Below, piece by piece: positions 2,583 to 47,482 of a DNA stretch of 47,482 nucleotides. A model generated the notes under the pieces. It had not been told where the DNA came from and did no database searches. It saw only the letters and a program-made list of their open reading frames with translations. The first letter of the stretch is position 1; the number at the start of each line of letters is the position of its first letter. The DNA comes from a virus. The stretch lies in IMG/VR virus record IMGVR_UViG_3300044470_000442, positions 1 to 47,482 of that record; one strand, given 5' to 3'. Made by a program: the position numbers and the translations under genes.

Positions 2583-3029
2583 ATGAAAAGTAAGGTATAT
2601 ACAGGGGAAAAAAAGAAAAACGTAAGGTACAAGTTTACCCAAGAGGACATCGACCGCGCAAAGAATGCGTATCTCTGTAAGCCAAAAGGTCTTACATGGA
2701 AAGCAATAGTCGACGAAATGCTTTCACAAACCGAAATAAACCTCGAATACAGCAAAAAAATCCCCGCAGGAAAAGGCGGTTTCCGTATTGTCAAGCGCAA
2801 TATATTCCTCAGCGCAGGAAATCGTGCTACCATAAGACATATGATAACGGCAAAACAAATCGAAATGGCAATGGATGGAAACTCCGGAGCCATTGCTGAT
2901 ATACAGGACAGAGACTATGGAAAACCCAGGCAGGCCCTTGAACACTCCCTTGGTTCTCCCCTCGAGGAAGGTCAAAGCGATCCCGATTCTATGATATTGG
3001 CCATGATTCGCAAGGTGATGGATAAATGA
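2583..3029 (+). CDS. putative terminase small subunit
   Basis: First gene of the rightward arm, 148 aa, overlapping the start of the large terminase gene. The assignment is positional and no strong motif was seen. Confidence 0.5.
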   Translation: MKSKVYTGEKKKNVRYKFTQEDIDRAKNAYLCKPKGLTWKAIVDEMLSQTEINLEYSKKIPAGKGGFRIVKRNIFLSAGNRATIRHMITAKQIEMAMDGNSGAIADIQDRDYGKPRQALEHSLGSPLEEGQSDPDSMILAMIRKVMDK

Positions 3030-4540
3030 CCGAACTCGAAACAATTCTTGAGCAACCCGCTCTTCTCCAGCGAATGCCTGATAATGAGAAGGAACAACTT
3101 GTTTTGGAGTTGGAAAGGGTTCTCAGGAAACAAGCCGAGGATCGTTTTTATTATTTCTTTCGCCAGGCGTGGCCGATTATTTGGAAAGCGATCCCATTTG
3201 AGAAGTGTTCTTTCTATGAACCACTTTGTGATGAACTGCAAGAAGTAGCGGAGAGAAATTTCAGAAACGAAGATTGTCTTAATAATGTTGTTGTCAACGT
3301 TCCTCCCGGTACCGCCAAAACAACTTTGTTCTCAGTGGCTTTTCATCCCTGGGTATGGATTGAACAAGCTACAAAGCGTTTCATTACCACTTCCTACTCT
3401 CCTAAAAAAGCCTATGACAATTGTCTGGCATCGATCAATCTTATCAAGAGCCCGTGGTACCAACGTAATTGGTGTGGCAAATATCAATTGAACAGGGATC
3501 TTGGAACAGATTGTCAAAACAGTAAAGGTGGGTACAGAATAATTACCGCTCCTGACGTAAAGGTTGGTACGGGATATCACGCTGACTTTATCATTGGCGA
3601 CGACAACCAGAACGCAGAGGAAGTTTATTCCTCGGCATACAGGGAAAAGGTTTGTCGTTGGCGGGATGAGACAATGTCCACACGCTTGGCAAACAAGAGA
3701 ACGGGCGTGATGATAGATGTCCAACAGAGACTTCACATTAAGGATCTTACCGCACACATTAAGAACACACAGGCAAGCTTGACCAAGTTTATTTCCCTTC
3801 CTGCTGAGAATACATACAAAAACGTTGAACCGCCCGAGTGGGAGAAATACTATATCGATGGTCTTCTGTCACCGAACGCCCTTCTGTCTCCTCTCGTTCT
3901 TAGCAAGGCAAAGACACAATTACGTAATGCTTATCAAGGACAATATAACCAGCACCCTGTCCCCTCGAACGGAACGTTATTCAAGGACGAGTGGGTGCGG
4001 TGGGTGACTGCCGAACAGCTTCCTGAGATGGAACTGGTCGTCGTTTCAGCGGACACGGCACAGACGGATAAGCAGTCCTCGTGTCCAGTGTCAATACAGA
4101 CATGGGCAAAGGAACGTGGTGCACCAAATTTCTATCTGCTCGGGGATGAGACGGACATCATGTCTATCCTATCAACCGAAAAAAGGATTGTTGCTGTCGC
4201 TGCCGTTAACCCAGGCTGTGTCATCGTGATAGAGCGGGAAGCAAGTGGTTACACAATCCTTGAGAACCTGAAAAAGGTATACCCTCTTGTCTTTGGCTTC
4301 GATCCCAGAAAATACGGCGGGAAAGAAAAGCGCGCAGAGATGGTCAGTCGTTACTGGGAGGCCGGGAACGTTTTTATCCTTCTCAACGAGTATTACAAAT
4401 CAAGATATGTTCCTGAAATAATTGACTTCCCGAATGGTCCATATAAAGACAGGGTCGACGCGATGTCTCAAGCCCTTATCTGGATCAACCGTGAGGAACT
4501 GACCCGGGTCAATCCTAACCCTAACCCACAGGTGTATTGA
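3026..4540 (+). CDS. terL: terminase large subunit
   Basis: 504 aa. Walker A-like VPPGTAKTT and Walker B-like DFIIGDD. C-terminal RNase-H-like nuclease signatures VVSADTAQTD and DRVDAMSQAL. Confidence 0.9.
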   Translation: MTELETILEQPALLQRMPDNEKEQLVLELERVLRKQAEDRFYYFFRQAWPIIWKAIPFEKCSFYEPLCDELQEVAERNFRNEDCLNNVVVNVPPGTAKTTLFSVAFHPWVWIEQATKRFITTSYSPKKAYDNCLASINLIKSPWYQRNWCGKYQLNRDLGTDCQNSKGGYRIITAPDVKVGTGYHADFIIGDDNQNAEEVYSSAYREKVCRWRDETMSTRLANKRTGVMIDVQQRLHIKDLTAHIKNTQASLTKFISLPAENTYKNVEPPEWEKYYIDGLLSPNALLSPLVLSKAKTQLRNAYQGQYNQHPVPSNGTLFKDEWVRWVTAEQLPEMELVVVSADTAQTDKQSSCPVSIQTWAKERGAPNFYLLGDETDIMSILSTEKRIVAVAAVNPGCVIVIEREASGYTILENLKKVYPLVFGFDPRKYGGKEKRAEMVSRYWEAGNVFILLNEYYKSRYVPEIIDFPNGPYKDRVDAMSQALIWINREELTRVNPNPNPQVY

Positions 4541-4866
4541 TGCAACCGTATGAAAAGGCAGTCTGTGACTTGTTTGGCGAGAAGCAGGAGGTCTCGTATA
4601 TCAGCAAGCCTCGCCTTGTAAAGGCCTTGGCGTATCTGAACATGGACTACGAGGTCTTGCATTTTGACCTGTACGAGGTTGCTCCGAACCACCGGAGATT
4701 CAAACATTTTACTCACGCCCAGCGGGTAGACATACAAAGGAGACTCAGTGAGCGACAAGCATTACGCGATAAAGCAGAACGAGAACCAAAACAAACGCCC
4801 GGTCAGGATAGTGGACATGCAGACCGGGAAATGTGTGGCAACGTCGACCTCAGCAGCAAAGGCTGA
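4540..4866 (+). CDS. hypothetical protein
   Basis: The ATG at 4540 overlaps the terL stop (TGATG). 108 aa with no family recognised. Confidence 0.5.
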   Translation: MQPYEKAVCDLFGEKQEVSYISKPRLVKALAYLNMDYEVLHFDLYEVAPNHRRFKHFTHAQRVDIQRRLSERQALRDKAEREPKQTPGQDSGHADREMCGNVDLSSKG

Positions 4867-4892
4867 GGCAGACATACGCAGGAGGTTTGACA

Positions 4893-5105
4893 ATGGAAAA
4901 AGTAGATAACTGGAAAAATCGTTCAGCGGCAATGCGCTGCGCGTCTTGTATCCATTACGTACCGAAAAGCGTCGAGGGAGTAGTCATGTCTGTTGGACGG
5001 TGCCGGAAGCACGCTCCCTCCTTGAACGGTTGGCCGGTCGTCTTTACGCTCGACTGGTGCGGTGATCACAAACTCAACGAGGAGAGCCTCCGTGACCAGG
5101 CTTGA
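4893..5105 (+). CDS. small Cys-rich protein (70 aa)
   Basis: Internal ATG of track ORF 4833..5105, with GGAGG 7 nt upstream (4881-4885). Cysteines at CASC, GRC and WCGDH. Confidence 0.55.
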   Translation: MEKVDNWKNRSAAMRCASCIHYVPKSVEGVVMSVGRCRKHAPSLNGWPVVFTLDWCGDHKLNEESLRDQA

Positions 5106-5155
5106 TATTGTTATTGCCCTGATGGCGGTGGAAATTATTCTACAGGTGGTGTGGC

Positions 5156-6067
5156 ATGTTGTTCGCTGATACGAAAACAGACGTTGTCTTTTTCTCCGTG
5201 ATGTTCTCCCAGCGATGGCCGGAGCTGTTTCGCTTTATCAAGACAGCCCTCAATACCTGCGGCGTCGAGGTTGTTTTGGTTCAAGGAAACTTTAATATCT
5301 GGGCGCGTGACTGGCTGCCCCTGCAGGTGGGGGACCACTTCGTTAAATTTTTGTACAAGGGATATGGCTCGATGTACGAGGACTTTCCTTGGTTGAATGT
5401 TCCCCAAAAGGTAATACAGAACGCCCTTCCGGGCCTTCGTTTTTTAATGTCAACTCTTACCATGGACGGTGGCGGTATTGTTCGTTGTGGTAAGAAGGTT
5501 GTGGTAACCGAGAAGGTCTTTCTTGACAACAAGGATAAAGACGAAAAGGAAATTATGGCGCTGTTGCAGTATTACTTCAACGCGGACATCATTGTTATAC
5601 CCATAGAGCCAGGAGATGACCTTGGGCATTCTGACGGAATCGTGAAGTTCGTTAATGAAAATACAATCCTTCTTAATAACTACAGTGTGATGCTTAGTGA
5701 TGAATATGATACATATTTTAAGAAGGTAAAGGACATTCTCACCAACGCTGGTCTCAAGATTGTTCTCATGCCCTTTGCCTATCAACGTTGCCCCGTTTTG
5801 TCCGATGAAGCCTTTAAGGCTAAATACCCGTTGGCAGATGATAACAACCCGGCAGTGGGTTATTACGTCAATTTCCTTTTGACAAGCAGGTGCATCCTCC
5901 TTCCCGTGTTTGGCTTTGAGGAAGATGCCGCGGCCCTTGTAACCATACGGGAGTGTTACCCTGACCATGTTGTGATCCCTGTTGACTGCTACGAACTCTC
6001 CATGGAGGGTGGCTTGATGAACTGCGTTACGATGAACTACATTAAGGAGAATATGGTATGTCGATAA
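5156..6067 (+). CDS. agmatine deiminase / Porphyromonas-type peptidyl-arginine deiminase-like enzyme (guanidino-group-modifying superfamily)
   Basis: 303 aa. Motifs NIWARDWLP (cf. D-x-W-x-RD-x-GP), LGHSDGIVKF (cf. GH-x-D) and C-terminal EGGLMNCVTMN (cf. GGG-x-HC-x-T with catalytic Cys) match the PAD_porph/AguA pattern as I recall it. Confidence 0.7.
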   Translation: MLFADTKTDVVFFSVMFSQRWPELFRFIKTALNTCGVEVVLVQGNFNIWARDWLPLQVGDHFVKFLYKGYGSMYEDFPWLNVPQKVIQNALPGLRFLMSTLTMDGGGIVRCGKKVVVTEKVFLDNKDKDEKEIMALLQYYFNADIIVIPIEPGDDLGHSDGIVKFVNENTILLNNYSVMLSDEYDTYFKKVKDILTNAGLKIVLMPFAYQRCPVLSDEAFKAKYPLADDNNPAVGYYVNFLLTSRCILLPVFGFEEDAAALVTIRECYPDHVVIPVDCYELSMEGGLMNCVTMNYIKENMVCR

Positions 6068-7818
6068 ATCAACCAGGAATACCAGCAGGACTCAGCTCAT
6101 CGATCAACGCACCCTCCGGTATTCGCTCAGGCACGGCCGCTCAGGGAAACAGTCCTATCTCCGTGTCAATTGGTGCGGTGACCTCACAGTCCGCTCCGAC
6201 ATATACACTACAGAATACCCAGCCCGGTACTCCTATATATCAATGGGACATCTACGACTTCATGCTCAACGCCTATTTCGGTGAGGGCGGGTTCCACGAC
6301 GGCTCGGCCCTGGTCAAGTCACAGATTGAGAAGGACGTACAGTATGTAGAACGTCGTGCCAACTCTTACTACAAGAACTACGTTCGCCCGATCATCGACG
6401 CGACCTATATCCCTGTCTTCACGAAACCCGTCAAGCGGGTGACCAAGGTCAACGGTGCCGACGACCCCGAGGGAAAAGCGGCTCCAATGTGGAAGGCCTT
6501 CTGTGATAACGTAGACAACAGGGGAACAGACATTGCCCTGTTTGCCCAAAAGGTTGTACGCTATGCCAGAATACATGGCGTTTCGTTTATTGTCATGGAC
6601 AATTTTCCAGATCCTCCGGTGGCCGAGGCCGATGCAATCAAGGAGAGAAAGTTTCCTTTTGTGGCGATGCGCCTGCCGCAGCAGGTCGAGGTTTCCCTGC
6701 TGAAACTTGACCGCTTTATGGGAATCGAAGAGATTGCTTTCAGAGAAGCTCCCTGCAAGGGACAGGAACGCTGGAAGCTTTGGACGAAGGAATACTCGGT
6801 CTGTTTATACAAGGACAAAGAGGGTAACTTTCAGCAGGACGGTGAGACACTATTCGTATATAACCTGGCAAAGGTTCCGGTTATTCCGGTTTTCTCAGCG
6901 GAGTGTGAAGATGGAACAATCCTCCCGAAACCGAACTTTTATGATATAGCACGTTGTAACTGGAAACTGTTCAATACCTGCTCCGCTCAGGACAGGTTGA
7001 TGCGTGCACAGATGTTCGCGATCCTTTGCGCACCGAAGATTGAGCAGGGCTTCGCGTCATCGCCTAACCAGGGTTTCGAGCTTCCCGCAAACGACTCCAA
7101 CTCAGGAGTGTCTTACCCGACACCGTTTTACCTTGCCCCTCCGACCGGTCCCTACGCCGAGATAGGCAAGAACATAAACGATCTCGGGAACGACTTGTTT
7201 CAGATGGCAGGACAGCAGGGTGTGACCGGGGTCAAGACTGAAGCGTCAGGGATTGCCGCTGCTTATGACTGGCAGGGGCAAGAGTGGGTGCTTAAGCAGA
7301 CTGCCGCGATGGCAAAGCTTTCCGAGGAAAAGATCGCAGAGGTTTATCAGCTGTATGTACCAACAATCAAGATTGAGTATTGTGCTGAATATTCGACGGA
7401 CTATCAGGTCATTGACCAGATGGCAAAAGGTAATCAGTTCAGTCGCTTTCTTGCCGATATTTCCCAGCTTAGTGTTCCGTACAATCCTGTCGTAGCAGAG
7501 GGAATCATCGAGTATTGCTACGCAACCTATAACGGGATCAAGGAAGAGGAGGTGCAGGAAATTATTGATTGGATAGAGAAGAACACAAGCGAGGATGCCG
7601 AACCACAAGCAGACACAAGTATTCCGGAGTTGAACGATAATGACAAAGTGATGTCCTTCCTTAAGGACAAGAACCATGTACCGAACTCGGCTTTTGCCAA
7701 GAACACCACAACTAAAAAGGGCGTCAGCAACCCAAGGGGACAAGGTGGAACAAACGATGATCCTACCTTGGAAGACAACAACGTTCCAAACCCTAAAGAG
7801 GAGGTTGCCGTTAAGTGA
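6058..7818 (+). CDS. putative portal protein
   Basis: 586 aa with AAGGAG 8 nt upstream. Located between the terminase block and the MuF-like head morphogenesis gene. Assigned by position and size. Confidence 0.65.
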   Translation: MSINQPGIPAGLSSSINAPSGIRSGTAAQGNSPISVSIGAVTSQSAPTYTLQNTQPGTPIYQWDIYDFMLNAYFGEGGFHDGSALVKSQIEKDVQYVERRANSYYKNYVRPIIDATYIPVFTKPVKRVTKVNGADDPEGKAAPMWKAFCDNVDNRGTDIALFAQKVVRYARIHGVSFIVMDNFPDPPVAEADAIKERKFPFVAMRLPQQVEVSLLKLDRFMGIEEIAFREAPCKGQERWKLWTKEYSVCLYKDKEGNFQQDGETLFVYNLAKVPVIPVFSAECEDGTILPKPNFYDIARCNWKLFNTCSAQDRLMRAQMFAILCAPKIEQGFASSPNQGFELPANDSNSGVSYPTPFYLAPPTGPYAEIGKNINDLGNDLFQMAGQQGVTGVKTEASGIAAAYDWQGQEWVLKQTAAMAKLSEEKIAEVYQLYVPTIKIEYCAEYSTDYQVIDQMAKGNQFSRFLADISQLSVPYNPVVAEGIIEYCYATYNGIKEEEVQEIIDWIEKNTSEDAEPQADTSIPELNDNDKVMSFLKDKNHVPNSAFAKNTTTKKGVSNPRGQGGTNDDPTLEDNNVPNPKEEVAVK

Positions 7819-8786
7819 GACCGTCTCCTTTCAAACGCTATGCTGATGCCTTCGGTGCCCGTTGGGACGCCATAAGTCCTGAGCTGCAGCAGGAGATCCT
7901 TGCGGACATTGCCGCGGGAAAGCCTCCCGCTATTGCGGTCAAAGTCGTGTTTGAGAGGCATGGGATCAAGGAGAAGATCGCCGACTGGATCGCCGAGGGT
8001 TGTTTAGAATCAGCAGCAGCTGGTGGTGTGAAATTTGCAAGCGACCTTACCGGGCGCTTTTACTTTTTGAACAAGACCTTTAACGCCGACAGCATTTCTC
8101 TCAGCGAACGCGTCACGCAACTTAAGTTTCAGGACACGGTTGTTTCGACATTGCAGGCAAACCTCGCCAGCCAGGACCAGTTTTCAAGGCTGGTGACTGA
8201 CCTGGCAAAATACACTACCGAGGAAGACCTGCCGCAAGGTCTTTTGGAGCTTGAAAGACAGGCACGCCGGGTTATGTCCGGGGATGTTGAGGCCTTCGAT
8301 GAGTTCGCCGCGACCTTGAAAAAGGAAAAGGCTATAGCCTTATCCGCAATACACGACGGTGACGAGACCGTTTTGAAACGTTCCTATGTAAAGCTTACCA
8401 AAGCAGCGGAAAGCTTGAACGAGAAAAGTCTTAACTATGCCGTGGAGAACGCAATTGACCAAAAGGCACGCAGTGCCGCCTTTCGTATCGCGCATACAGA
8501 AATGGCCAATGCCTATGGCTTGGCGGTCAGGACAGATGCGGCGCGAGACACAGAATGCACGGGTATCGAGTGGACGCTTTCGTCTGCCGAGAACCATTGT
8601 GATGTTTGCGATGATCTTGATGGGAAGGTCTTTGCCCTGGGTGAGTTGCCGGAATATCCGGCGCACCCTCATTGTTCGTGTCATCTTGATAAATACTACG
8701 GTGATGAAAGCGATGTTGAGAACAAACCTGGTAATTCAGACGATGAGACAATACCCGAGGAACTTTTACTTGAAAGCGGGGATTAA
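7815..8786 (+). CDS. head morphogenesis / minor capsid protein, SPP1 gp7 - Mu F family
   Basis: GTG start overlapping the portal stop (GTGA), with GAGGAGG upstream. The C-terminal motif HCDVCDDLDGKVF...YPAHPHCSCH is typical of the MuF/gp7 family. Confidence 0.8.
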   Translation: MRPSPFKRYADAFGARWDAISPELQQEILADIAAGKPPAIAVKVVFERHGIKEKIADWIAEGCLESAAAGGVKFASDLTGRFYFLNKTFNADSISLSERVTQLKFQDTVVSTLQANLASQDQFSRLVTDLAKYTTEEDLPQGLLELERQARRVMSGDVEAFDEFAATLKKEKAIALSAIHDGDETVLKRSYVKLTKAAESLNEKSLNYAVENAIDQKARSAAFRIAHTEMANAYGLAVRTDAARDTECTGIEWTLSSAENHCDVCDDLDGKVFALGELPEYPAHPHCSCHLDKYYGDESDVENKPGNSDDETIPEELLLESGD

Positions 8787-15491: not shown

Positions 15492-16463
15492 ATGTTTCCA
15501 CGTAATAATTCATACGACAAGATAGTCCCAACAGGGCAGGCCAAGACGCCCTCCGATGTCCGCTGGCCTGCCTATTGCATGGTCGAGCCGTATGAGAAGT
15601 CTTTTTCAACGGCGGTGGCAAATAATGTGTGGATGAAGGAGTTACCGCCCGAGAAGCAAAAGATTGACTACGACAAGGCCTTTCAACAGTTCATGGAGCT
15701 TGGGCAATGGGTCGCTGCCAATTCCTCGACCTATCTTATCCCTAACAAGGGAAAGTACCAAGACCTGATCTACTGCGCCAATATCGGAATTTATCTCGAA
15801 CCTGCAGATGTGATCGTTGTCTCCAATTTCACCTCTGAACCAAGGAGAGGCGAGGACGAGATTGGCAAGGCCTTTTTTGACCTGATGGGTTATACCGTCG
15901 TGAAGCCACCGCCGACCTGTCACTTCGAGGGCGAGGCTGACCTCAAGTTCCAACGGGATAATATCTTTGTCGGTGGTTACGGGATAAGAACCGACAAGGA
16001 GACTTTTGACTGGATGGAACGTCAATTCAATATCAAGATCGTCAAGTGCCTTATGACCGATGAAAGACAATACCACTTCGACTGTATGTATTTTCCGTTG
16101 ACCATGGAGAAGGCGTTGGTGTGTACCGAAATATACCAACCGGCAGACCTTGCCGAAATTGAAAAGGTCGTCGAGATTATTGACATCCCAAAGCCTGAGG
16201 CATACGCGATGTCGACGAATTGCGTTCGTGTTGGAGCGAATATCCTTGTGGCATCGGAGATAACCGAAATGCACTCTTCTGACCCTGCATACATAAACGA
16301 AGTGACCAAACTCGGAAGACTTGGGCAGATTTGTTCCAATAATGGTCTTAGTCTTATTTCGGTTAACCTGTCTGAGTTCAATAAGTCAGGCGCGGCGCTG
16401 TCCTGCCTTATGTTCCATTGCAACTATGTCGATTACCAGTCACCACTCGGTGAGGTATTTTAA
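15492..16463 (+). CDS. amidinotransferase / arginine-deiminase / CtlX-like enzyme (guanidino-group-modifying fold)
   Basis: 323 aa with AGGGAG 7 nt upstream. Motifs HFEGEADL (cf. EGGD), YHFDCMYF (cf. HLD) and C-terminal SGAALSCLMFHC (catalytic Cys position) fit the amidinotransferase (PF02274-like) pattern as I recall it. Confidence 0.65.
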   Translation: MFPRNNSYDKIVPTGQAKTPSDVRWPAYCMVEPYEKSFSTAVANNVWMKELPPEKQKIDYDKAFQQFMELGQWVAANSSTYLIPNKGKYQDLIYCANIGIYLEPADVIVVSNFTSEPRRGEDEIGKAFFDLMGYTVVKPPPTCHFEGEADLKFQRDNIFVGGYGIRTDKETFDWMERQFNIKIVKCLMTDERQYHFDCMYFPLTMEKALVCTEIYQPADLAEIEKVVEIIDIPKPEAYAMSTNCVRVGANILVASEITEMHSSDPAYINEVTKLGRLGQICSNNGLSLISVNLSEFNKSGAALSCLMFHCNYVDYQSPLGEVF

Positions 16464-17179
16464 TGTCACAGTCGCTGGAGGAATGGTTGGTCGAGATTGA
16501 GCCGTTTAAACGGATGGACCCCGATGTCCTTTCGTCGGTGTTCTTTTTTCGTGATCCGTCACGACCGATCTTTCTTGACTCCGATTACATCTTTTCTCCA
16601 GCGGACGGAACCATTATTGACCAGGGTTTTATAAAGCCTGACCAGCAGATTGTGGAGATGAAGGGCGTTGACTATTCGCCAAGGAAGCTTTTGGAGGAGC
16701 CCGCGTTCAACTCGACCTCCTTGTGTATTTCGATCTTTATGTCACAGTATGATGTGCACATTAATCGGATGCCGACAAACGGGAATGTCTTTTTCAGAAC
16801 GGTTGATCCTATCCAGACAAAGAACATTCCGATGATCTTTGAGGAACGGGACCTGCTTGCCGGACATAGCAACTATGAACACATGGACTATGTCACTGCA
16901 AACGCTCGAACAATTAACAGGATCACCAACGGTGGCTACCAATATTATTTGGTACAGATTTGTGATACCGATGTCAACGTGGTTGCTCCGTTTTCGACAA
17001 AGCAGGGGAAACATTTTTTTCAGAACGAACGCTTCTCTGTTGTCCGCTATGGGTCACAGGTAACCCTGGTGCTTCCCTTGACGGATTCGTTTGACTTTGA
17101 CCTGATGGAGCAACCGGAAAGACATGTCAGGGCCGGGCTTGATCGTCTTGTATACCTGAGGTCAAAGAAGCGTGACTGA
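16463..17179 (+). CDS. phosphatidylserine decarboxylase-family pyruvoyl-dependent decarboxylase (short type)
   Basis: 238 aa. The start overlaps the upstream stop (TAATG). Motifs FFFRDPSRP, FSPADGTI, SIFMSQYDVHINRMPTNG and the self-cleavage-type VRYGSQVTLVLP (G-S site) match short PSD/Asd proteins. Confidence 0.75.
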   Translation: MSQSLEEWLVEIEPFKRMDPDVLSSVFFFRDPSRPIFLDSDYIFSPADGTIIDQGFIKPDQQIVEMKGVDYSPRKLLEEPAFNSTSLCISIFMSQYDVHINRMPTNGNVFFRTVDPIQTKNIPMIFEERDLLAGHSNYEHMDYVTANARTINRITNGGYQYYLVQICDTDVNVVAPFSTKQGKHFFQNERFSVVRYGSQVTLVLPLTDSFDFDLMEQPERHVRAGLDRLVYLRSKKRD

Positions 17180-32991: not shown

Positions 32992-33894
32992 TCATCCTCT
33001 CCCTTTATCGCGGATAATCGAAAAGAACTCGGCCCGAGCTTTTCCTTCTTCTTTGAGGATACCCCGAAGAGAAGAAGTCATCATAACCGAGTTCTGTTTC
33101 TGAATACCCCGAATAACCATACAGAGGTGCTGGGCTTCAACCAATACAGCAACGCCAAGCGGGTTCAGATATTTCTCAACAGCGTCTGCAATTTGAGAAG
33201 TTAACCTTTCCTGTATTTGCAGGCGTCTTGAAAAGCAATCCACGAGACGGGCGAGTTTCGATATTCCAACAACCTTACCTCCTGCTGACGGAACGTAGGC
33301 AACATGAGCCTTACCAAAGAAGGGAAGTAGATGGTGCTCACAGGTGCTCGAAAACTCGATGTCCTTTAAAACGACCATTTCATCATAGGAACCATCGTTG
33401 TCAAAAACCTTGCTCAATATTTCTGCAGGGTTCTGCATGTACCCTTTATAAAGCTCATCCCATGACTTGAGAACCCTACGTGGCGTATCCTTTAAACCGT
33501 CGCGCGTCGGGTCTTCCCCGATGTATTGTAGGAAGCGTAGGGGAACGTCTTCGATGCTTCCCAACATGTCCCCTTCCCATGGAAATACGATCCACTCTTT
33601 TTCGAGTTTTTTTCTTTTGTCTATCAAAGCAAAAAACGGTCGGGCGTATTGTGTGAAATACCTTTGCATTGTCTTGCCCGAGTCAATAAGGTCATCGACA
33701 AACACGGTTGCGTGGTCGGGCGATGACGTAACAGTGGAACCGGGAATGTGCATTGCCACGGCATAGGCAACCGGAACCCCTCCACGGGGTACTCCGTAGA
33801 TAATTGGTTTCGGTCCTATCTCCGGTTGGTTTCCTATGTCCAGTGCGACGTTGCTTGCAAGAATATTTACGTCGGTAGTCGTAAGTTTTTTCAT
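32992..33894 (-). CDS. folE: fusion protein: N-terminal type I phosphoribosyltransferase (Gpt-like) + C-terminal GTP cyclohydrolase I
   Basis: 300 aa. The N-terminal part has [13 protein letters not shown], the PRPP loop [13 protein letters not shown] and EWIVFPWE (Gpt-like ending). The C-terminal part has the FolE motifs [34 protein letters not shown] and HLCMVIRG. Confidence 0.85.
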
Positions 33895-34496
33895 TATCGA
33901 ACTCCTATGAATTTATGTAGTTGAACACCAACACGCCATCGTGGCCCGAGCCTTTCACATTCCTCCATTGCCATAAGGAATACTTTCTTAGACCTGGTCT
34001 CCGGTGAAATGACCTGCAGGGAGTAGTCAATCGCTGGGAAAGAAGACCAGTCGTCCGCTTCGATTCCTTCCATATATGGATACAGTATTTTCAGAGAGAT
34101 GCACGAAGTTACCTTACAGTCCTTTCGAGGTATTTTTGGGCTCAAGGATACCTCTACCGGTTCACTGGAAATTGGAAACGTCCCGTTTGTTTCCAAATGA
34201 ATGACGTAATGGTTCTTTACCAAGACGAAGATCAAATCGTCTAACTTTTTCTGTAAAAGGGGTTCTCCACCGGTAAGAACAATCATGCGACACTTGTTGT
34301 CAGAAAGTACACTAACCTTTTCAAGAATATCCTCTATTCCCATTACTTGATAACCAGGTATCGAAGTGTCACAAAAAGCGCACATAAGGTTGCAGCCGTG
34401 GAACCTTACGAAGATTGCCGGATGTCCAGCGAACAGACCTTCACCTTGGATGCTTTTGAATATCTCGGCAACGTTATACATATTGTACCTCGACAA
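33894..34496 (-). CDS. queE: 7-carboxy-7-deazaguanine synthase (radical SAM)
   Basis: 200 aa. SIQGEG and the radical-SAM cluster motif [11 protein letters not shown]. The stop overlaps the folE start by 1 nt. Confidence 0.85.
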
Positions 34497-34878
34497 AAGA
34501 AGTATCGGTTTCCCAGACCTTGACGGATTCCAGTGTCACGTTTTCAATTCCTGCTTGGTCAATTTTCTTGAACAGAAGCTTTGCGATATTCTCCACGGTT
34601 GGGTTGTTTGGAAGGATTACCATTTCAGTCAATCCGTGAAGAAGGCCAACGAGAGGGTCAAAGGAATTAAGCATAATACAATGATCAAGTTCATTGATTA
34701 TAGGATTAATTTTTTCCTTTAGAACAGAGAAGTCAACAAGAAATCCCATACCATCAAGGGAGTTCCCGTTGAAAGTGACCTGAACTTTGTAATTGTGACC
34801 ATGTATGTTTTTACATGGACCTGTATAACCAAACAGGCGATGTCCGGCACAGAACTGAAACTCCTTCGTAATGATCAT
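34474..34878 (-). CDS. queD: 6-carboxy-5,6,7,8-tetrahydropterin synthase
   Basis: 134 aa. FCAGHRL...HGHNY...DH motifs typical of QueD/PTPS. Confidence 0.85.
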   Translation of the reverse strand: MIITKEFQFCAGHRLFGYTGPCKNIHGHNYKVQVTFNGNSLDGMGFLVDFSVLKEKINPIINELDHCIMLNSFDPLVGLLHGLTEMVILPNNPTVENIAKLLFKKIDQAGIENVTLESVKVWETDTSFVEVQYV

Positions 34879-35531
34879 GATATGTACTCCGTTTCGTCTT
34901 TTATTTTTGCTTCTTTGAACGCCTCTTTCCTTTCATTGCAAGCACCACACGTTCCGCAATGTTTTTCATAACCCCGATAACAAGAGTAGGTCAAGAACAT
35001 CGGCGCTTTGATGCGCTTTCCCAGTTCTACTATTCCTGTTTTGGTAAGGTCATAAAAAGGAGTCAGAAGGAGAATACGTTTTTCTGTTCCTTCCCTGATA
35101 GCATCCTCCATTGCAGTATTGAACTGTGGGCGACAGTCAGGATAGATATAGTGGTCTCCGGCGTGCGAGGCAAGGGAAACGCAGCCCATACCCATACTCT
35201 CAGCGAACCCGACAGCTATTGCAAGCATAATTCCGTTGCGAAAAGGAACAACGGTTGAGCGCATGTTTTCAGCTTGGTAATGCCCCTCTGGAATCGCATC
35301 AGATCCGGCGAGTAAAGAAGACTGGAAATGTTCCTTGATAAAATCAAGGGCGATTTCATCGAGGTGTATTCCATATTGTTTGGTAATCTTCTGTGCAGCC
35401 ATACGTTCCATCCGATTGTGATTACTCCCGTAGTAAAAATTGAGGCATGACACTTCGTTTCCTTCATCTAACAATTTCGTCAAAAGAACAGTGCTGTCAA
35501 GACCTCCCGAGTAGACGTGAAGTATTTTCAT
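34875..35531 (-). CDS. queC: 7-cyano-7-deazaguanine (preQ0) synthase
   Basis: 218 aa. PP-loop SGGLDS and the C-terminal zinc cysteines SCY...HCGTCGACNERKEAF. No glutamine amidotransferase domain is attached. Confidence 0.88.
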   Translation of the reverse strand: MKILHVYSGGLDSTVLLTKLLDEGNEVSCLNFYYGSNHNRMERMAAQKITKQYGIHLDEIALDFIKEHFQSSLLAGSDAIPEGHYQAENMRSTVVPFRNGIMLAIAVGFAESMGMGCVSLASHAGDHYIYPDCRPQFNTAMEDAIREGTEKRILLLTPFYDLTKTGIVELGKRIKAPMFLTYSCYRGYEKHCGTCGACNERKEAFKEAKIKDETEYIS

Positions 35532-36586
35532 TAGACCCTCCTTTTTTGGGACGATAAATGATCAGGATCGGCATTATTGATGTCCATCGATACGGCAAAG
35601 GCTTTTGTAACGTTTGGGAAATCCATTTCCCACATAGCACCAACGGCAGTCGTTGTTTCTAATTTCTTTGCCCATTTGATCCAAGAAACCGCGGTTATCT
35701 TTCCGATATAGCTTTCGTTGGTAACCCTGTGCCAATTTTCTTCTTTCTTGAGTTCATCAAAGTCAAAACCAAGTTCGGTTATCTCTCTGCGAAAGTTTCC
35801 AGCAAGTATATCTTCTCGCTGGCACATTCTCCACGAGTTATCGTGGAATATTTGTACGTGACCAAAACGACATCCGCCAACCCATGCCGTTGAGTCAAAA
35901 CTTGTTGGCTTGAAGTAAAGGATAAAGTCTCTATTGGCAAAACCAAGCCAGTGAACTTTTCTCCCTTTGCGAGCGTTCTGTTCAAACCATTTTACATACT
36001 TGTTAGCGTTTTGCGTTCCTGCAATTCCGCCAAGACCCACCAAGGAACTGCACTGGTAAAACCCGTCAAGCTCCTTGATGTCTTCTCCTCTGGTAAAGAT
36101 AGGAACCGGCTTGAGTCCTTTCTTGAGCATTTTTTCAAGATTAATCTTTGTTACCTTTGGGTCACCAATTTTATCGAGCATAAAATAACGCTCAATAGGA
36201 ACAGGAGGGCTTTTTACAAAGGCACAGTATTCCTCAAAATTGACTTCCTTGCCCTGCTTATACGCGGTGAAGGCCCCGGAGTCCAGGTAGAGACGATAAC
36301 TTCCTTCCCATTTTTTGAGGGCCTTAACAATATTTTCGTTCCAATAGGCATACGAGATAAGAATAGGAACTTTCCACGGCGCTACCTTGGAACGAGCAGC
36401 AGCAGCAGCAGCAGAGACACTGTTTGGCAAGTCCTTGCCTTCGTACCCTATTACTGTAGCACCAATACTTCCGAGGCGCTGGAGATGCTCTGCTGCTGCT
36501 GCTGCATTAGGTATAGAGTTGGGGTCACCGGTTTGTCCGGATTTTATGACACTCATACCGATTGTAGTTGTCTTTCTTGTTATCAT
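35531..36586 (-). CDS. dpdA: DpdA-type DNA-guanine transglycosylase (TGT-like) with an unusual Ala-tract N-terminal extension
   Basis: 351 aa. YLDSGAF and a TGT-like core, located directly upstream of queC (TAATG overlap). The first roughly 75 aa (two AAAAA(A) tracts) are not typical of the family. Alternative start at M11 (36556). Confidence 0.75.
   Translation of the reverse strand: MITRKTTTIGMSVIKSGQTGDPNSIPNAAAAAEHLQRLGSIGATVIGYEGKDLPNSVSAAAAAARSKVAPWKVPILISYAYWNENIVKALKKWEGSYRLYLDSGAFTAYKQGKEVNFEEYCAFVKSPPVPIERYFMLDKIGDPKVTKINLEKMLKKGLKPVPIFTRGEDIKELDGFYQCSSLVGLGGIAGTQNANKYVKWFEQNARKGRKVHWLGFANRDFILYFKPTSFDSTAWVGGCRFGHVQIFHDNSWRMCQREDILAGNFRREITELGFDFDELKKEENWHRVTNESYIGKITAVSWIKWAKKLETTTAVGAMWEMDFPNVTKAFAVSMDINNADPDHLSSQKRRV
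36399..36505. repeat. 18-bp perfect inverted repeat built from triplet repeats, (GCA)5GAG / CTC(TGC)5, inside the 5' part of dpdA
   Basis: Arms at 36399..36416 and 36488..36505 with a 71-nt spacer. On the coding (minus) strand both arms encode Ala tracts. Confidence 0.9.
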
Positions 36587-37164
36587 TTTACCTCAAGTCC
36601 TTTCAAGCCAGTTACGTCTATCCAGCTTTGGAGCAATTCTTTCACCTCTTCCTTTTTGGCAGCGTCAAGAACTATGACTATTATCTTGTCCTTAAGTCCT
36701 GAGTTCTCGGCATTTATTTTTCCGATTTTATTCAAATCGGGTAACATGGCAATTCCACGGTATTCGTCTTCGGTGAAGCCTGACCACTCGCGGACATTCT
36801 TTTGCTCAAAGAATTTAAGAAGCAAGGAATCGTCCCACTGTGCCCACTCGCTGCTTTTATTGTCCGCAATACCGTAGGCAATAGCGGCCTGTTCGCTGGG
36901 GAAATTAACGAACAGAACCTTGACAGATTTCCACCCGAGTTTCTTTGCTGCTTTCCAAGTCGTGTTACCTTTGTAGATAACCTTGTTCTTTTTCCATACT
37001 ACTATGGGCGTGACCTGTCCGCGCGTCTGCAGAACTTCAGCAAGCTTTCCAACAGACCCGTCGTTCTTTCTGGGATTTTCTTTCCACAGAAAAACTGAGT
37101 CAATAGGAACATTTTCAATCGCTTCGTTCAACAGAACCTTGGTTTCTTCCTTCTTCGTAATCAC
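36583..37164 (-). CDS. ParB N-terminal (ParB/Srx) domain protein, DpdB-like partner candidate of DpdA
   Basis: 193 aa. The LWKENPRKND motif (ParB-box-like NPR) and the GNTTWKAAKKLGW helix are present. The stop overlaps the dpdA start (ATGA) and the start overlaps the primase stop. Confidence 0.65.
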   Translation of the reverse strand: MITKKEETKVLLNEAIENVPIDSVFLWKENPRKNDGSVGKLAEVLQTRGQVTPIVVWKKNKVIYKGNTTWKAAKKLGWKSVKVLFVNFPSEQAAIAYGIADNKSSEWAQWDDSLLLKFFEQKNVREWSGFTEDEYRGIAMLPDLNKIGKINAENSGLKDKIIVIVLDAAKKEEVKELLQSWIDVTGLKGLEVK

Positions 37165-43209: not shown

Positions 43210-43509
43210 TCAATGTGTTTTCCACTCCGGTACCTCCTGAATAATTTTTCGTGCTTCTGCACTGCATGGAATAATCTCAATTGCCTCTGTAAGAGTTATT
43301 TCCGGCACCACAGCAGGAAATTTACAGTTGCCTGGTTTTGATACGCCGCGAACTGCCAGTTCAGACAACGACGCGGCACCGTCCCAGTACCACAAGCGCC
43401 GGGAGTCCTTGAGGATAACCTCTTTTCCCTTGCGGTAAATAAGCGTACCGGCATGTACCCCTGCCGAGTAGGTTCTAACTATGACATACGGTGCCTCGAC
43501 TTTTTTCAT
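43210..43509 (-). CDS. conserved-looking phage protein of unknown function (99 aa)
   Basis: Translates to MKKVEAPYVIVRTYSAGVHAGTL...RRLWYWDGAASLSELA... I recall similar sequences in many phage replication modules, with no assigned function. Confidence 0.6.
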   Translation of the reverse strand: MKKVEAPYVIVRTYSAGVHAGTLIYRKGKEVILKDSRRLWYWDGAASLSELAVRGVSKPGNCKFPAVVPEITLTEAIEIIPCSAEARKIIQEVPEWKTH

Positions 43510-46928: not shown

Positions 46929-47417
46929 TCAACCCTTTGGCAGGGAACCTATGGCCTTTTTGAGAATCTCTTTTCCTTTGGGTTTCGTTTCGGGTTTTGT
47001 CCGAACGAACTCAACGAGTTTGTCTTTGTCGTTGCGGGTCCAGCGATGCAGAGGGAGAAGCTTTGCCTTTGTGTCAGGTACTTTTACGCGCGATGAATTG
47101 ATGTGACCGCGCACCTGTGCGACGTAAATTTTGTCCTCAGGCACCTTTTTTTCTTTTGAGACGAGTTTGATAATTTCCTCGTCAGTGTGCTTGTTCTCCA
47201 AAAGATAATCCACGGTCAGGGAGAACACCGAAGGTTTTCTGTCGTCCTTTTTGGCAACCGGAGTGACCTTTTTGGCAACTGGTGCTTTGACCGGTGCTCC
47301 CGGGTTCTTTGCCGGGCTTTCGTCGTCTTCCTGTTCCGGCGTTCCTATGTACGGTTTTGCCGTGGGTTGCGAGATTGCTTTTTTTGACACTGCCTCTGAC
47401 TTTTTGATAATGGCCAT
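46929..47417 (-). CDS. hypothetical Lys-rich protein (162 aa)
   Basis: Its start codon lies in the terminal repeat. The N-terminus is disordered and Pro/Lys/Ala-rich. No family recognised. Confidence 0.55.
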   Translation of the reverse strand: MAIIKKSEAVSKKAISQPTAKPYIGTPEQEDDESPAKNPGAPVKAPVAKKVTPVAKKDDRKPSVFSLTVDYLLENKHTDEEIIKLVSKEKKVPEDKIYVAQVRGHINSSRVKVPDTKAKLLPLHRWTRNDKDKLVEFVRTKPETKPKGKEILKKAIGSLPKG

Positions 47418-47482
47418 TAGGCCCTCCTTGTGTCTGGTGTAAAAAACTTACTGTTTACTGTGTGACTGAGCTTAAAATATTC
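47356..47482. repeat. Terminal direct repeat, copy B (identical to 1..127)
   Basis: Same comparison as copy A. The repeat contains the start codon (47417) of the 162-aa minus-strand ORF. Confidence 0.95.

Follow-up and report, generated by a model that had tools for sequence, protein, structure and literature searches.

Why would a phage keep a gene resembling those of agmatine deiminases between the genes for its large terminase and its portal protein? The question is raised by a virus genome sequence of 47,482 nucleotides (IMG/VR record IMGVR_UViG_3300044470_000442, positions 1 to 47,482), which was analyzed over its whole length and is referred to here as the window. A preliminary description of this DNA assigned an open reading frame (ORF) of 303 amino acids (aa) to the agmatine-deiminase/PAD family, placed it between the terminase and portal genes, and tied it to enzymes encoded at 15492–17179. 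The flanking genes were confirmed by PHROGs matches (Table 1), and the tie to the downstream enzymes was found to be a conserved module, except that the downstream region is two ORFs and not one. These encode an ArgZ-like guanidino-group hydrolase and a pyruvoyl-dependent decarboxylase of the phosphatidylserine decarboxylase (PSD) family. On balance, we lean towards the trio being a small-molecule arginine-metabolism module, in which the PAD-like enzyme most likely converts agmatine to N-carbamoylputrescine.

Family, fold, and active site of the PAD-like protein

The search with the PF04371 (PAD_porph) hidden Markov model proposed in the preliminary description gave a score of 108.1 bits (E = 6.8e-31) against a curated cut-off of 25 bits, with residues 34–294 of the protein aligned to positions 63–319 of the 321 in the profile. 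In a phmmer search of the PDB, the best sequence-related solved structures were putative and proven agmatine deiminases (1xkn, 1.8e-13; Helicobacter pylori 3hvm, 7.8e-13; Enterococcus faecalis 2jer, 2.2e-9), and the Porphyromonas enzyme PPAD was not among the matches at E ≤ 10. Structure prediction, also proposed earlier, yielded a confident AlphaFold2 model from 29 homologs (predicted local distance difference test, pLDDT, 94.7; predicted template modeling score, pTM, 0.92) with the five-bladed alpha/beta propeller (pentein) fold. When this model was compared with the PDB using Foldseek, ranks 1–23 were all agmatine deiminases or close homologs (probability 1.00, template modeling (TM) scores of 0.69–0.77 on the query), followed by PPAD at ranks 24–30 with a TM score of ~0.65 and then by DDAH. 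A search of the viral structure library BFVD matched other penteins only and no agmatine-deiminase-like viral entry. The family assignment is, therefore, borne out by both sequence and fold.

The three peptides quoted in the preliminary description were located at residues 47–55 (NIWARDWLP), 156–165 (LGHSDGIVKF), and 284–294 (EGGLMNCVTMN). They do place the protein in the family with the signature D-x-W-x-RD, GH-x-D, and GGG-x-x-C-x-T, although the first motif is actually N-x-W-x-R-D. In the alignment of the 29 homologs, W49, R51, D52, H158, D160, G285, G286, and C290 are invariant, N47 is nearly so, and D154 is at least 90% conserved, so that a loss of the catalytic Cys or His, raised earlier as a point to check, was not seen. 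C290, H158, D52, and D160 align with C324, H202, D84, and D204 of the H. pylori agmatine deiminase (AgD), and through that alignment residue roles were carried over from the description of the Medicago enzyme MtAIH, in which Asp220 binds the amine of agmatine directly, Asp89 does so via water, and Trp91 belongs to an aromatic tunnel (PMC6447857). On this mapping, C290 (MtAIH Cys366) would be the nucleophile and H158 (His224) the acid/base; D52 and D160 (Asp94 and Asp226) would hold the guanidine; D154 (Asp220) would directly contact the free amine of agmatine; and W49 (Trp91) would line the tunnel, with Y69 aligned to a second aromatic tunnel residue (MtAIH Trp125 or Tyr). N47 takes the place of Asp89.

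The protein is shortened at its N-terminus, as had been claimed, but the size of the gap depends on the reference, being 29 residues against the Pfam profile, 33 against H. pylori AgD, 44 against the E. faecalis enzyme, and 53 against 1xkn, rather than 40–60. An exhaustive search of 1.84 billion representatives returned 156 clusters at E ≤ 1e-30, and nearly all of the best 150 of these were 270–310 aa long and aligned from their own first residues. Because the homologs are equally short and align in this way, the protein represents a populated short-form subfamily and not a truncation artefact. The subfamily is also divergent, as the protein scored below the cut-offs of the AguA equivalog TIGR03380 (49.7 versus 381.8 bits) and of NF010070 (51 versus 483 bits), and its deiminase activity is therefore putative.

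Comparison with the AguA/AIH agmatine deiminases (EC 3.5.3.12; 3HVM, 2JER, Campylobacter jejuni 6B10, and Medicago 6NIB) shows PF04371, the five-bladed pentein fold, the Cys/His/Asp set, the guanidine-binding Asp pair, the tunnel Trp, and the amine-binding Asp in common. The phage protein differs in being 30–50 residues shorter N-terminally, in having 15–20% identity in structural alignments, in having Asn for the first Asp of D-x-W-x-R-D, and in the linkage of its gene to ArgZ-like and PSD-family genes instead of AguB, putrescine carbamoyltransferase, or AguY (PMC12283126). It has no hydrophobic segment. Overall, our data support a short-form member of the agmatine-deiminase family as the product of the ORF, soluble, with an intact active site, and competent for catalysis, and a preference for agmatine would be more likely than one for peptidyl-arginine.

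A three-gene module in phages and bacteria

In the window, the ArgZ-like and PSD-like genes overlap by one base (TAATG) and lie as a pair 9.4 kb downstream of the PAD-like gene, between tail genes. Unrelated phage contigs have the three genes in a contiguous, overlapping order (DDAH-like, PS_Dcarbxylase, PAD_porph), and on a second contig PAD_porph is followed by PS_Dcarbxylase. To define the linkage, 33 IMG/VR loci were probed by tblastn with the window proteins. Among the 22 loci with a PAD of at least 34% identity, both partners were directly adjacent in 17; of the other five, four had one partner and were cut by a contig end, and the last was a short contig with neither. Two gene arrangements were seen among these loci, with a third in L041. 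Full-length distant PADs (26–30% identity) were found with a partner in none of ten cases.

Clustering of the ORFs of 25 loci recovered the PAD family in all 25, the ArgZ-like family in 22, and the PSD-like family in 21; the next real family was present in at most six, the large terminase (TerL) family was common to five, and no fourth gene family recurred across backbones. Because only three families recur and TerL is common to five loci, the module is a mobile cassette that crosses phage backbones. The reading that we favour is that the ArgZ-like/PSD-like pair is the core of the module and PAD an accessory third member. A partner that would convert N-carbamoylputrescine was not found in these loci, as PAD has no recurrent neighbours other than the ArgZ-like and PSD-like families.

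The trio-linked PADs form their own subclade, separate from the solo PADs. A subclade of solo, short PAD_porph proteins was observed in phages and bacteria (L027, L028 with 462 aa, L034–L036, L042, and L044), with no ArgZ-like or PSD-like partner. Fusions occur in it, to an ADP-ribosylglycohydrolase domain in P0235 and to Sel1 repeats in P0279, which suggests that this subclade has a different, possibly protein-arginine-directed function. The fusions, which came from a scan of longer PAD homologs, were considered as a “Rosetta stone” for the trio and rejected, since they fall in the other subclade.

The ArgZ-like protein is a single-domain pentein whose only PDB matches at E ≤ 10 were the cyanobacterial proteins Sll1336 and Alr4995 (ArgZ/AgrE, 8.7e-21; 6JUY–6JV1 and 6LRF). 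Its best NCBIfam match was Arg_dihydro (1.6e-27), at 96.4 bits against a 450-bit cut-off. ArgZ and AgrE are arginine dihydrolases of ~700 residues, and the full-length type is named in NCBIfam as bifunctional with ornithine cyclodeaminase; the phage protein, in contrast, lacks the C-terminal domain, occurs in phages and non-cyanobacterial bacteria, and is encoded in an operon with a decarboxylase. Its residues N45, N97, R118, E146, H195, D197, and C305 align with ArgZ N22, N71, R90, E118, H168, D170, and C264, and all seven are invariant across 17 homologs. D91 and R166 are also conserved, and the spacing of D91-N97-R118-E146-R166-H195 mirrors that of Asp73-Asp79-Arg98-Asp127-Arg145-His173 in hDDAH1, where Asp73 is the binding residue for the alpha-amino group, Arg145 is that for the alpha-carboxylate, and Arg98 lies close by (PMC10958460). 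By analogy, the ArgZ-like enzyme would still bind an alpha-amino acid, most simply L-arginine. Like its partners, it has no hydrophobic segment.

The PSD-like protein has invariant D48 and H99 and an invariant G197-S198 cleavage site, and its D97 is nearly invariant. D48, D97, H99, and S198 match D90, D142, H144, and S254, the autoprocessing residues of E. coli PSD, an enzyme that also has three amphipathic membrane-anchoring helices (PMC7952604). The phage protein has PF02666, the D/D-H-S set, and the G-S site for an N-terminal pyruvoyl group in common with E. coli PSD, Ao-ADC1, and PsiD, but it lacks the membrane helices of the E. coli enzyme. This is because its alignment starts at approximately residue 26, equivalent to E. 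coli PSD residue ~63, which leaves no room for them. Its maximum 19-residue hydropathy was 0.85, with no hydrophobic segment. The PSD family also includes members that act on free amino acids: Ao-ADC1 of Aspergillus oryzae is a pyruvoyl arginine decarboxylase (PMC12904898), and a tryptophan decarboxylase of the family is described in PMC11929908. Profile and fold searches found E. coli PSD alone, with Ao-ADC1 and PsiD too distant for detection by either, and so did not discriminate among these enzymes; the AlphaFold2 model (pLDDT 84.6) likewise had a fold match at E ≤ 0.001 to E. coli PSD only. The protein scored below every PSD equivalog cut-off in NCBIfam (74 versus 183 bits).

The pair also occurs without PAD, directly after the gp23 capsid gene in T4-like phages and between the portal and capsid genes in another phage. 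Among 50,697 phage records, the PSD-like gene was found in 45, namely 39 phages of Campylobacter jejuni that are of the CP8, CPX (a Fletchervirus), and NCTC12673 type and six Bacteroides phages of the DAC/SJC03 type. For the ArgZ-like family proper, the number of records was again 45; the counts per genus are equal, and the accessions agree wherever both are listed. Matches of the ArgZ-like protein in Xanthomonas and Ralstonia phages were set aside as distant DDAH-type proteins (23% identity) of another family. The six Bacteroides phages also have a long-form PAD. In one of them, DAC19 (MT074139; L080, L081), the adjacent pair is encoded by gp243 and gp244 and the long PAD by gp196, 47 kb away, and all three are annotated as “hypothetical”. 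Campylobacter phage CPX (JN132397; L083, L084) has its ArgZ-like gene, annotated as “amidinotransferase”, between gp41 and gp45 and its PSD-like gene beside GroES and a homing endonuclease.

Bacterial copies of the pair, 40–45% identical to the phage proteins, were found next to a MATE exporter in two cases and next to an ABC exporter in Nocardia terpenica. The operons observed were those of N. terpenica (CP023778, 6.70 Mb region; L071), L073/L074, and Kaarinaea lacus (L075), and one bacterial locus also has an S-adenosylmethionine (SAM) methyltransferase. These loci look as if they encode a cellular pathway, so far uncharacterised, whose product is exported, and the exporter neighbours point to that product being a small molecule. 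The Nocardia cluster holds a canonical long AguA-type gene that is 23% identical to the phage PAD. AguA-type enzymes have, therefore, joined the pair several times, as the phage short clade, the Nocardia long form, and the DAC19 long form, and it is this repeated independent recruitment that argues most strongly for agmatine-type chemistry being part of the pair's pathway.

Proposed pathway and alternative explanations

We hypothesize that the PAD-like enzyme would convert agmatine to N-carbamoylputrescine, with release of ammonia, by the usual Cys thiouronium mechanism, with C290 as nucleophile, H158 as acid/base, D52 and D160 holding the guanidine, and D154 the distal amine. The ArgZ-like dihydrolase would most likely convert L-arginine to L-ornithine, two NH3, and CO2, and the PSD-family decarboxylase most likely ornithine to putrescine, or possibly arginine to agmatine. 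Agmatine could thus be supplied by the decarboxylase acting on arginine, or by the host. An alternative order, in which the decarboxylase is followed by PAD and then by the ArgZ-like enzyme acting on N-carbamoylputrescine, would make linear use of all three proteins; this order fits less well because the ArgZ-like enzyme retains residues for binding an alpha-amino acid. Late in infection, the module would turn host arginine into diamine and free ammonia, and the phage may benefit through polyamines for DNA condensation, packaging, and translation, and through the release of nitrogen. Phage replication requires polyamines, which are also packaged along with the DNA of phages, and virus-encoded polyamine enzymes are a recognised, still small class.

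Literature searches on this enzyme combination found no description of the module. Phages have SpeD-derived pyruvoyl arginine and ornithine decarboxylases (ADC/ODC; PMC10407285), and the chlorovirus PBCV-1 has the series ADC-AIH-NCPAH-HSS (PMC9992855); these are also viral arginine-to-diamine enzymes, with an AIH step and a pyruvoyl decarboxylase among them. The decarboxylase of the trio is, however, of the PSD family and not of the SpeD or alanine-racemase fold, and the trio has an ArgZ-like dihydrolase and no nitrilase-type NCPAH. No phage AIH, dihydrolase, or PSD homolog is mentioned in the survey of virus polyamine enzymes (PMC9992855), and none of the agmatine-to-putrescine routes listed in PMC12283126 resembles the trio. 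The trio and its core pair are apparently a variant of virus-encoded polyamine/arginine metabolism without prior description. That they make up an undescribed, horizontally mobile arginine-to-putrescine pathway of many phage lineages and some bacteria, composed of an ArgZ-type dihydrolase, a soluble PSD-family ornithine/arginine decarboxylase, and a short-form agmatine deiminase, is a proposal that we make tentatively and with some doubt.

Several observations weigh against these proposals. A route from arginine through ornithine to putrescine needs the pair alone and makes no agmatine for PAD, and the module is without an N-carbamoylputrescine amidohydrolase; of the larger ORFs of the window, none was recognised as a nitrilase, transcarbamylase, or amidase-signature gene. 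All three enzymes fall far below NCBIfam equivalog cut-offs, and because of this their function is not simply transferable. At the active sites, Asn47 occupies the position of the Asp that makes the water-mediated amine contact in the plant AIH, and the correspondence between residues of the ArgZ-like protein and of DDAH is one of spacing and not of a computed alignment. Nor does the module always lie among head or packaging genes: the two Fletchervirus CPX genes are found among replication genes, and the idea of such a fixed placement was rejected on that account.

It is possible, although we consider it unlikely, that the trio builds or degrades some other guanidino or ureido metabolite. In one such scheme, the ArgZ-like protein could be an amidinotransferase that uses arginine as its donor; the acceptor amine would come from the PSD-like enzyme, and the guanidino product would be turned into a carbamoyl compound by the PAD-like enzyme. 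Bacteria would export this compound, and phages would manipulate the host or its neighbours with it. Such a scheme accommodates two guanidino-modifying enzymes, which are awkward for a simple putrescine route, as well as the annotation of the ArgZ-like gene as an amidinotransferase in Campylobacter phage records and the divergence of all three enzymes, which is too great for equivalog-level names. It also accommodates the MATE and ABC exporters beside the bacterial pairs and the single SAM methyltransferase, but cation exporters would fit the export of a diamine equally well, and no candidate compound is known. Moreover, the nearest characterised relatives of the ArgZ-like protein in the PDB and NCBIfam are dihydrolases, and N97 is the Asn of ArgZ at the position where DDAH has its guanidine-clamping Asp; amidinotransferases, too, probably have Asp at that position. 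Alternatively, the PAD-like gene may be an independent auxiliary gene that boosts an agmatine deiminase/N-carbamoylputrescine amidohydrolase route of the host, so that its co-occurrence with the pair would be without mechanistic meaning. The distance between PAD and the pair in the window and in DAC19, the many phages in which the pair functions without PAD, and the presence of an agmatine deiminase in C. jejuni itself (PDB 6B10), a host of pair-only phages, all suit this explanation. It is nonetheless improbable given the direct adjacency and overlapping stops and starts in 17 of the 22 loci on unrelated backbones, the distinct subclade of the trio-linked PADs, and the independent joining of long-form AguA-type genes to the pair in the Nocardia cluster and the DAC19 genome.

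Two further explanations concern macromolecular substrates. As a peptidyl-arginine deiminase, the alternative raised in the preliminary description, the PAD-like protein would citrullinate virion or host proteins, a role consistent with the naming of the Pfam family for the Porphyromonas PAD and with the position of the gene between packaging genes in the window lineage. The P0235 and P0279 fusions hint at protein-directed roles as well, but these cluster with the solo and not the trio subclade. PPAD of Porphyromonas gingivalis (4YT9) has the Pfam family name and catalytic fold in common with the phage protein, yet it is ~120 residues longer, was missed by the sequence search, and matches the model less well than any of the agmatine deiminases does (TM scores of 0.65 normalised to the query and 0.48 normalised to PPAD). 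The phage protein keeps the conserved Asp for binding agmatine's free amine; the obligate partners are an arginine-dihydrolase homolog and a decarboxylase that needs a free alpha-amino acid, a gene context that points to free small-molecule substrates; and the bacterial copies of the pair adjoin exporters. Citrullination is thus very improbable. Least credible to us is a role of the trio in hypermodification of DNA or nucleotides, by acting on an amidino or guanidino moiety in a modified base or by placing polyamine onto DNA. The window phage does have a complete 7-deazaguanine set (FolE, QueE, QueD, QueC, and DpdA), and its DNA probably contains a dPreQ0-type modified guanine. The position of the CPX ArgZ-like gene, between gp41 and gp45, would also suit this role, and those Campylobacter phages that have the pair probably belong to a group reported to have an unusual guanine replacement in their DNA. 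However, in the window the deazaguanine cluster is far from the trio, whose genes lie on the late strand; none of ~35 other loci has a FolE or QueCDE homolog within 10 kb of the trio; the bacterial pair adjoins efflux pumps and not DNA-modification genes; and, again, a pyruvoyl decarboxylase needs a free alpha-amino acid. An agmatine-directed enzyme in a small-molecule arginine pathway, therefore, remains our preferred reading of the PAD-like gene.

The locus and its setting in the phage genome

Comparison of the window ends showed that bp 1–127 and bp 47356–47482 are identical. This points to an assembler overlap and, thus, to a genome of 47,355 bp that is complete and either circular or circularly permuted, with structural and packaging genes on the + strand and replication genes on the − strand (Table 1). 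No relatives were found when positions 3000–8000 were searched at the nucleotide level against the 50,697 phage records, which gave a single 58-bp match at chance level, and a tRNA scan for clues to the host found none.

Table 1. Positions of the module genes and other features in the window.
Feature	Position	Strand	Evidence or remarks
PAD-like ORF, 303 aa	5156–6067	+	ATG start, TAA stop
Shine-Dalgarno-like AGGTGG	5143–5148	+	7 nt 5' of the PAD-like ATG; sequence reading
10-nt overlap of PAD-like gene end and portal start	6058–6067	+	ATGTCGATAA; sequence reading
Large terminase	3026–4540		phrog_38, 2.4e-63
Portal	6058–7818		phrog_145, 9.3e-29
ArgZ-like pentein (guanidino-group hydrolase), 323 aa	15492–16463	+	PDB, NCBIfam; phrog_12759 “unknown function”
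PSD-family pyruvoyl-dependent decarboxylase, 238 aa	16463–17179	+	PF02666, 1.3e-25; phrog_12670 “unknown function”
Late protein, 579 aa	13719–15458	+	weak baseplate/structural PHROG matches
Late protein, 1317 aa	21231–25184	+	Gly_rich_2 at 4e-4
Late protein, 750 aa	26695–28947	+	no family match
FolE	32992–33894	−	N-terminal extension of ~118 aa, weak PRTase match
Radical-SAM QueE-like	33894–34496	−	
QueD	34474–34878	−	
QueC	34875–35531	−	
DpdA-type transglycosylase	35531–36586	−	phrog_887, 7.7e-28
ParB_N protein	36583–37164	−	
DUF6948 protein, replication module	43210–43509	−	8.7e-32
DUF932 protein, genome start	100–1152	−	1e-40

The preliminary description regarded the site of the PAD-like gene as a classic moron slot. 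In the strict sense this did not hold, as the gene lacks bracketing signals, resembles its neighbours in base composition, overlaps the portal gene, and has diverged like the core genes. No promoter-like or terminator-like sites above background were found around it, and its G+C content at third codon positions is 0.56, compared with 0.49–0.60 for neighbouring late genes. A check of presence or absence in relatives, also proposed in that description, showed that the closest ones (L001, L002, and L005) have kept PAD in the same slot, in the order TerL, one intervening gene, PAD, and portal. The window PAD is 50–52% identical to their copies, and the corresponding ranges are 42–52% for TerL, 44–59% for the portal, and 42–54% for the capsid protein. 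From these sequence comparisons, the PAD-like gene can be regarded as an old resident of the late operon, where its 10-nt overlap with the portal gene suggests that the two may be translationally coupled.

The small Cys-rich ORF reported ahead of the PAD-like gene (4893–5105) is present, with four Cys and an upstream AGGAGG, but is not conserved in the closest relatives and was rejected as a module partner for that reason. The PHROGs search returned no family for it or for the PAD-like protein. Within 4537–5105, the conserved parts are the N-terminal part of ORF 4537–4866 and a small ORF in another frame (4748–4909), which resembles a 49-aa ORF of L002, and the annotation of this interval needs care. 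Antisense ORFs in the PAD-like gene (5450–5968, −) and the ArgZ-like gene (15642–16274, −) recur in homologous loci; they were rejected as genes, being shadow ORFs whose recurrence reflects conservation of the sense genes only. The late proteins of 1317, 750, and 579 aa are probably of an undescribed type of tail, baseplate, or fibre protein.

If our reading of the module is true, a whole arginine-to-putrescine route made of non-canonical enzymes would be widespread in phages, under present annotations of “unknown function”, “amidinotransferase”, and “phosphatidylserine decarboxylase”. The PSD family would gain a new prokaryotic or viral activity and the ArgZ-type dihydrolases a new setting, and lipid-metabolism and creatine-type readings in surveys of viral auxiliary genes would be corrected. 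As the module is carried by cultured phages of Campylobacter jejuni and Bacteroides thetaiotaomicron, these proposals are directly testable.

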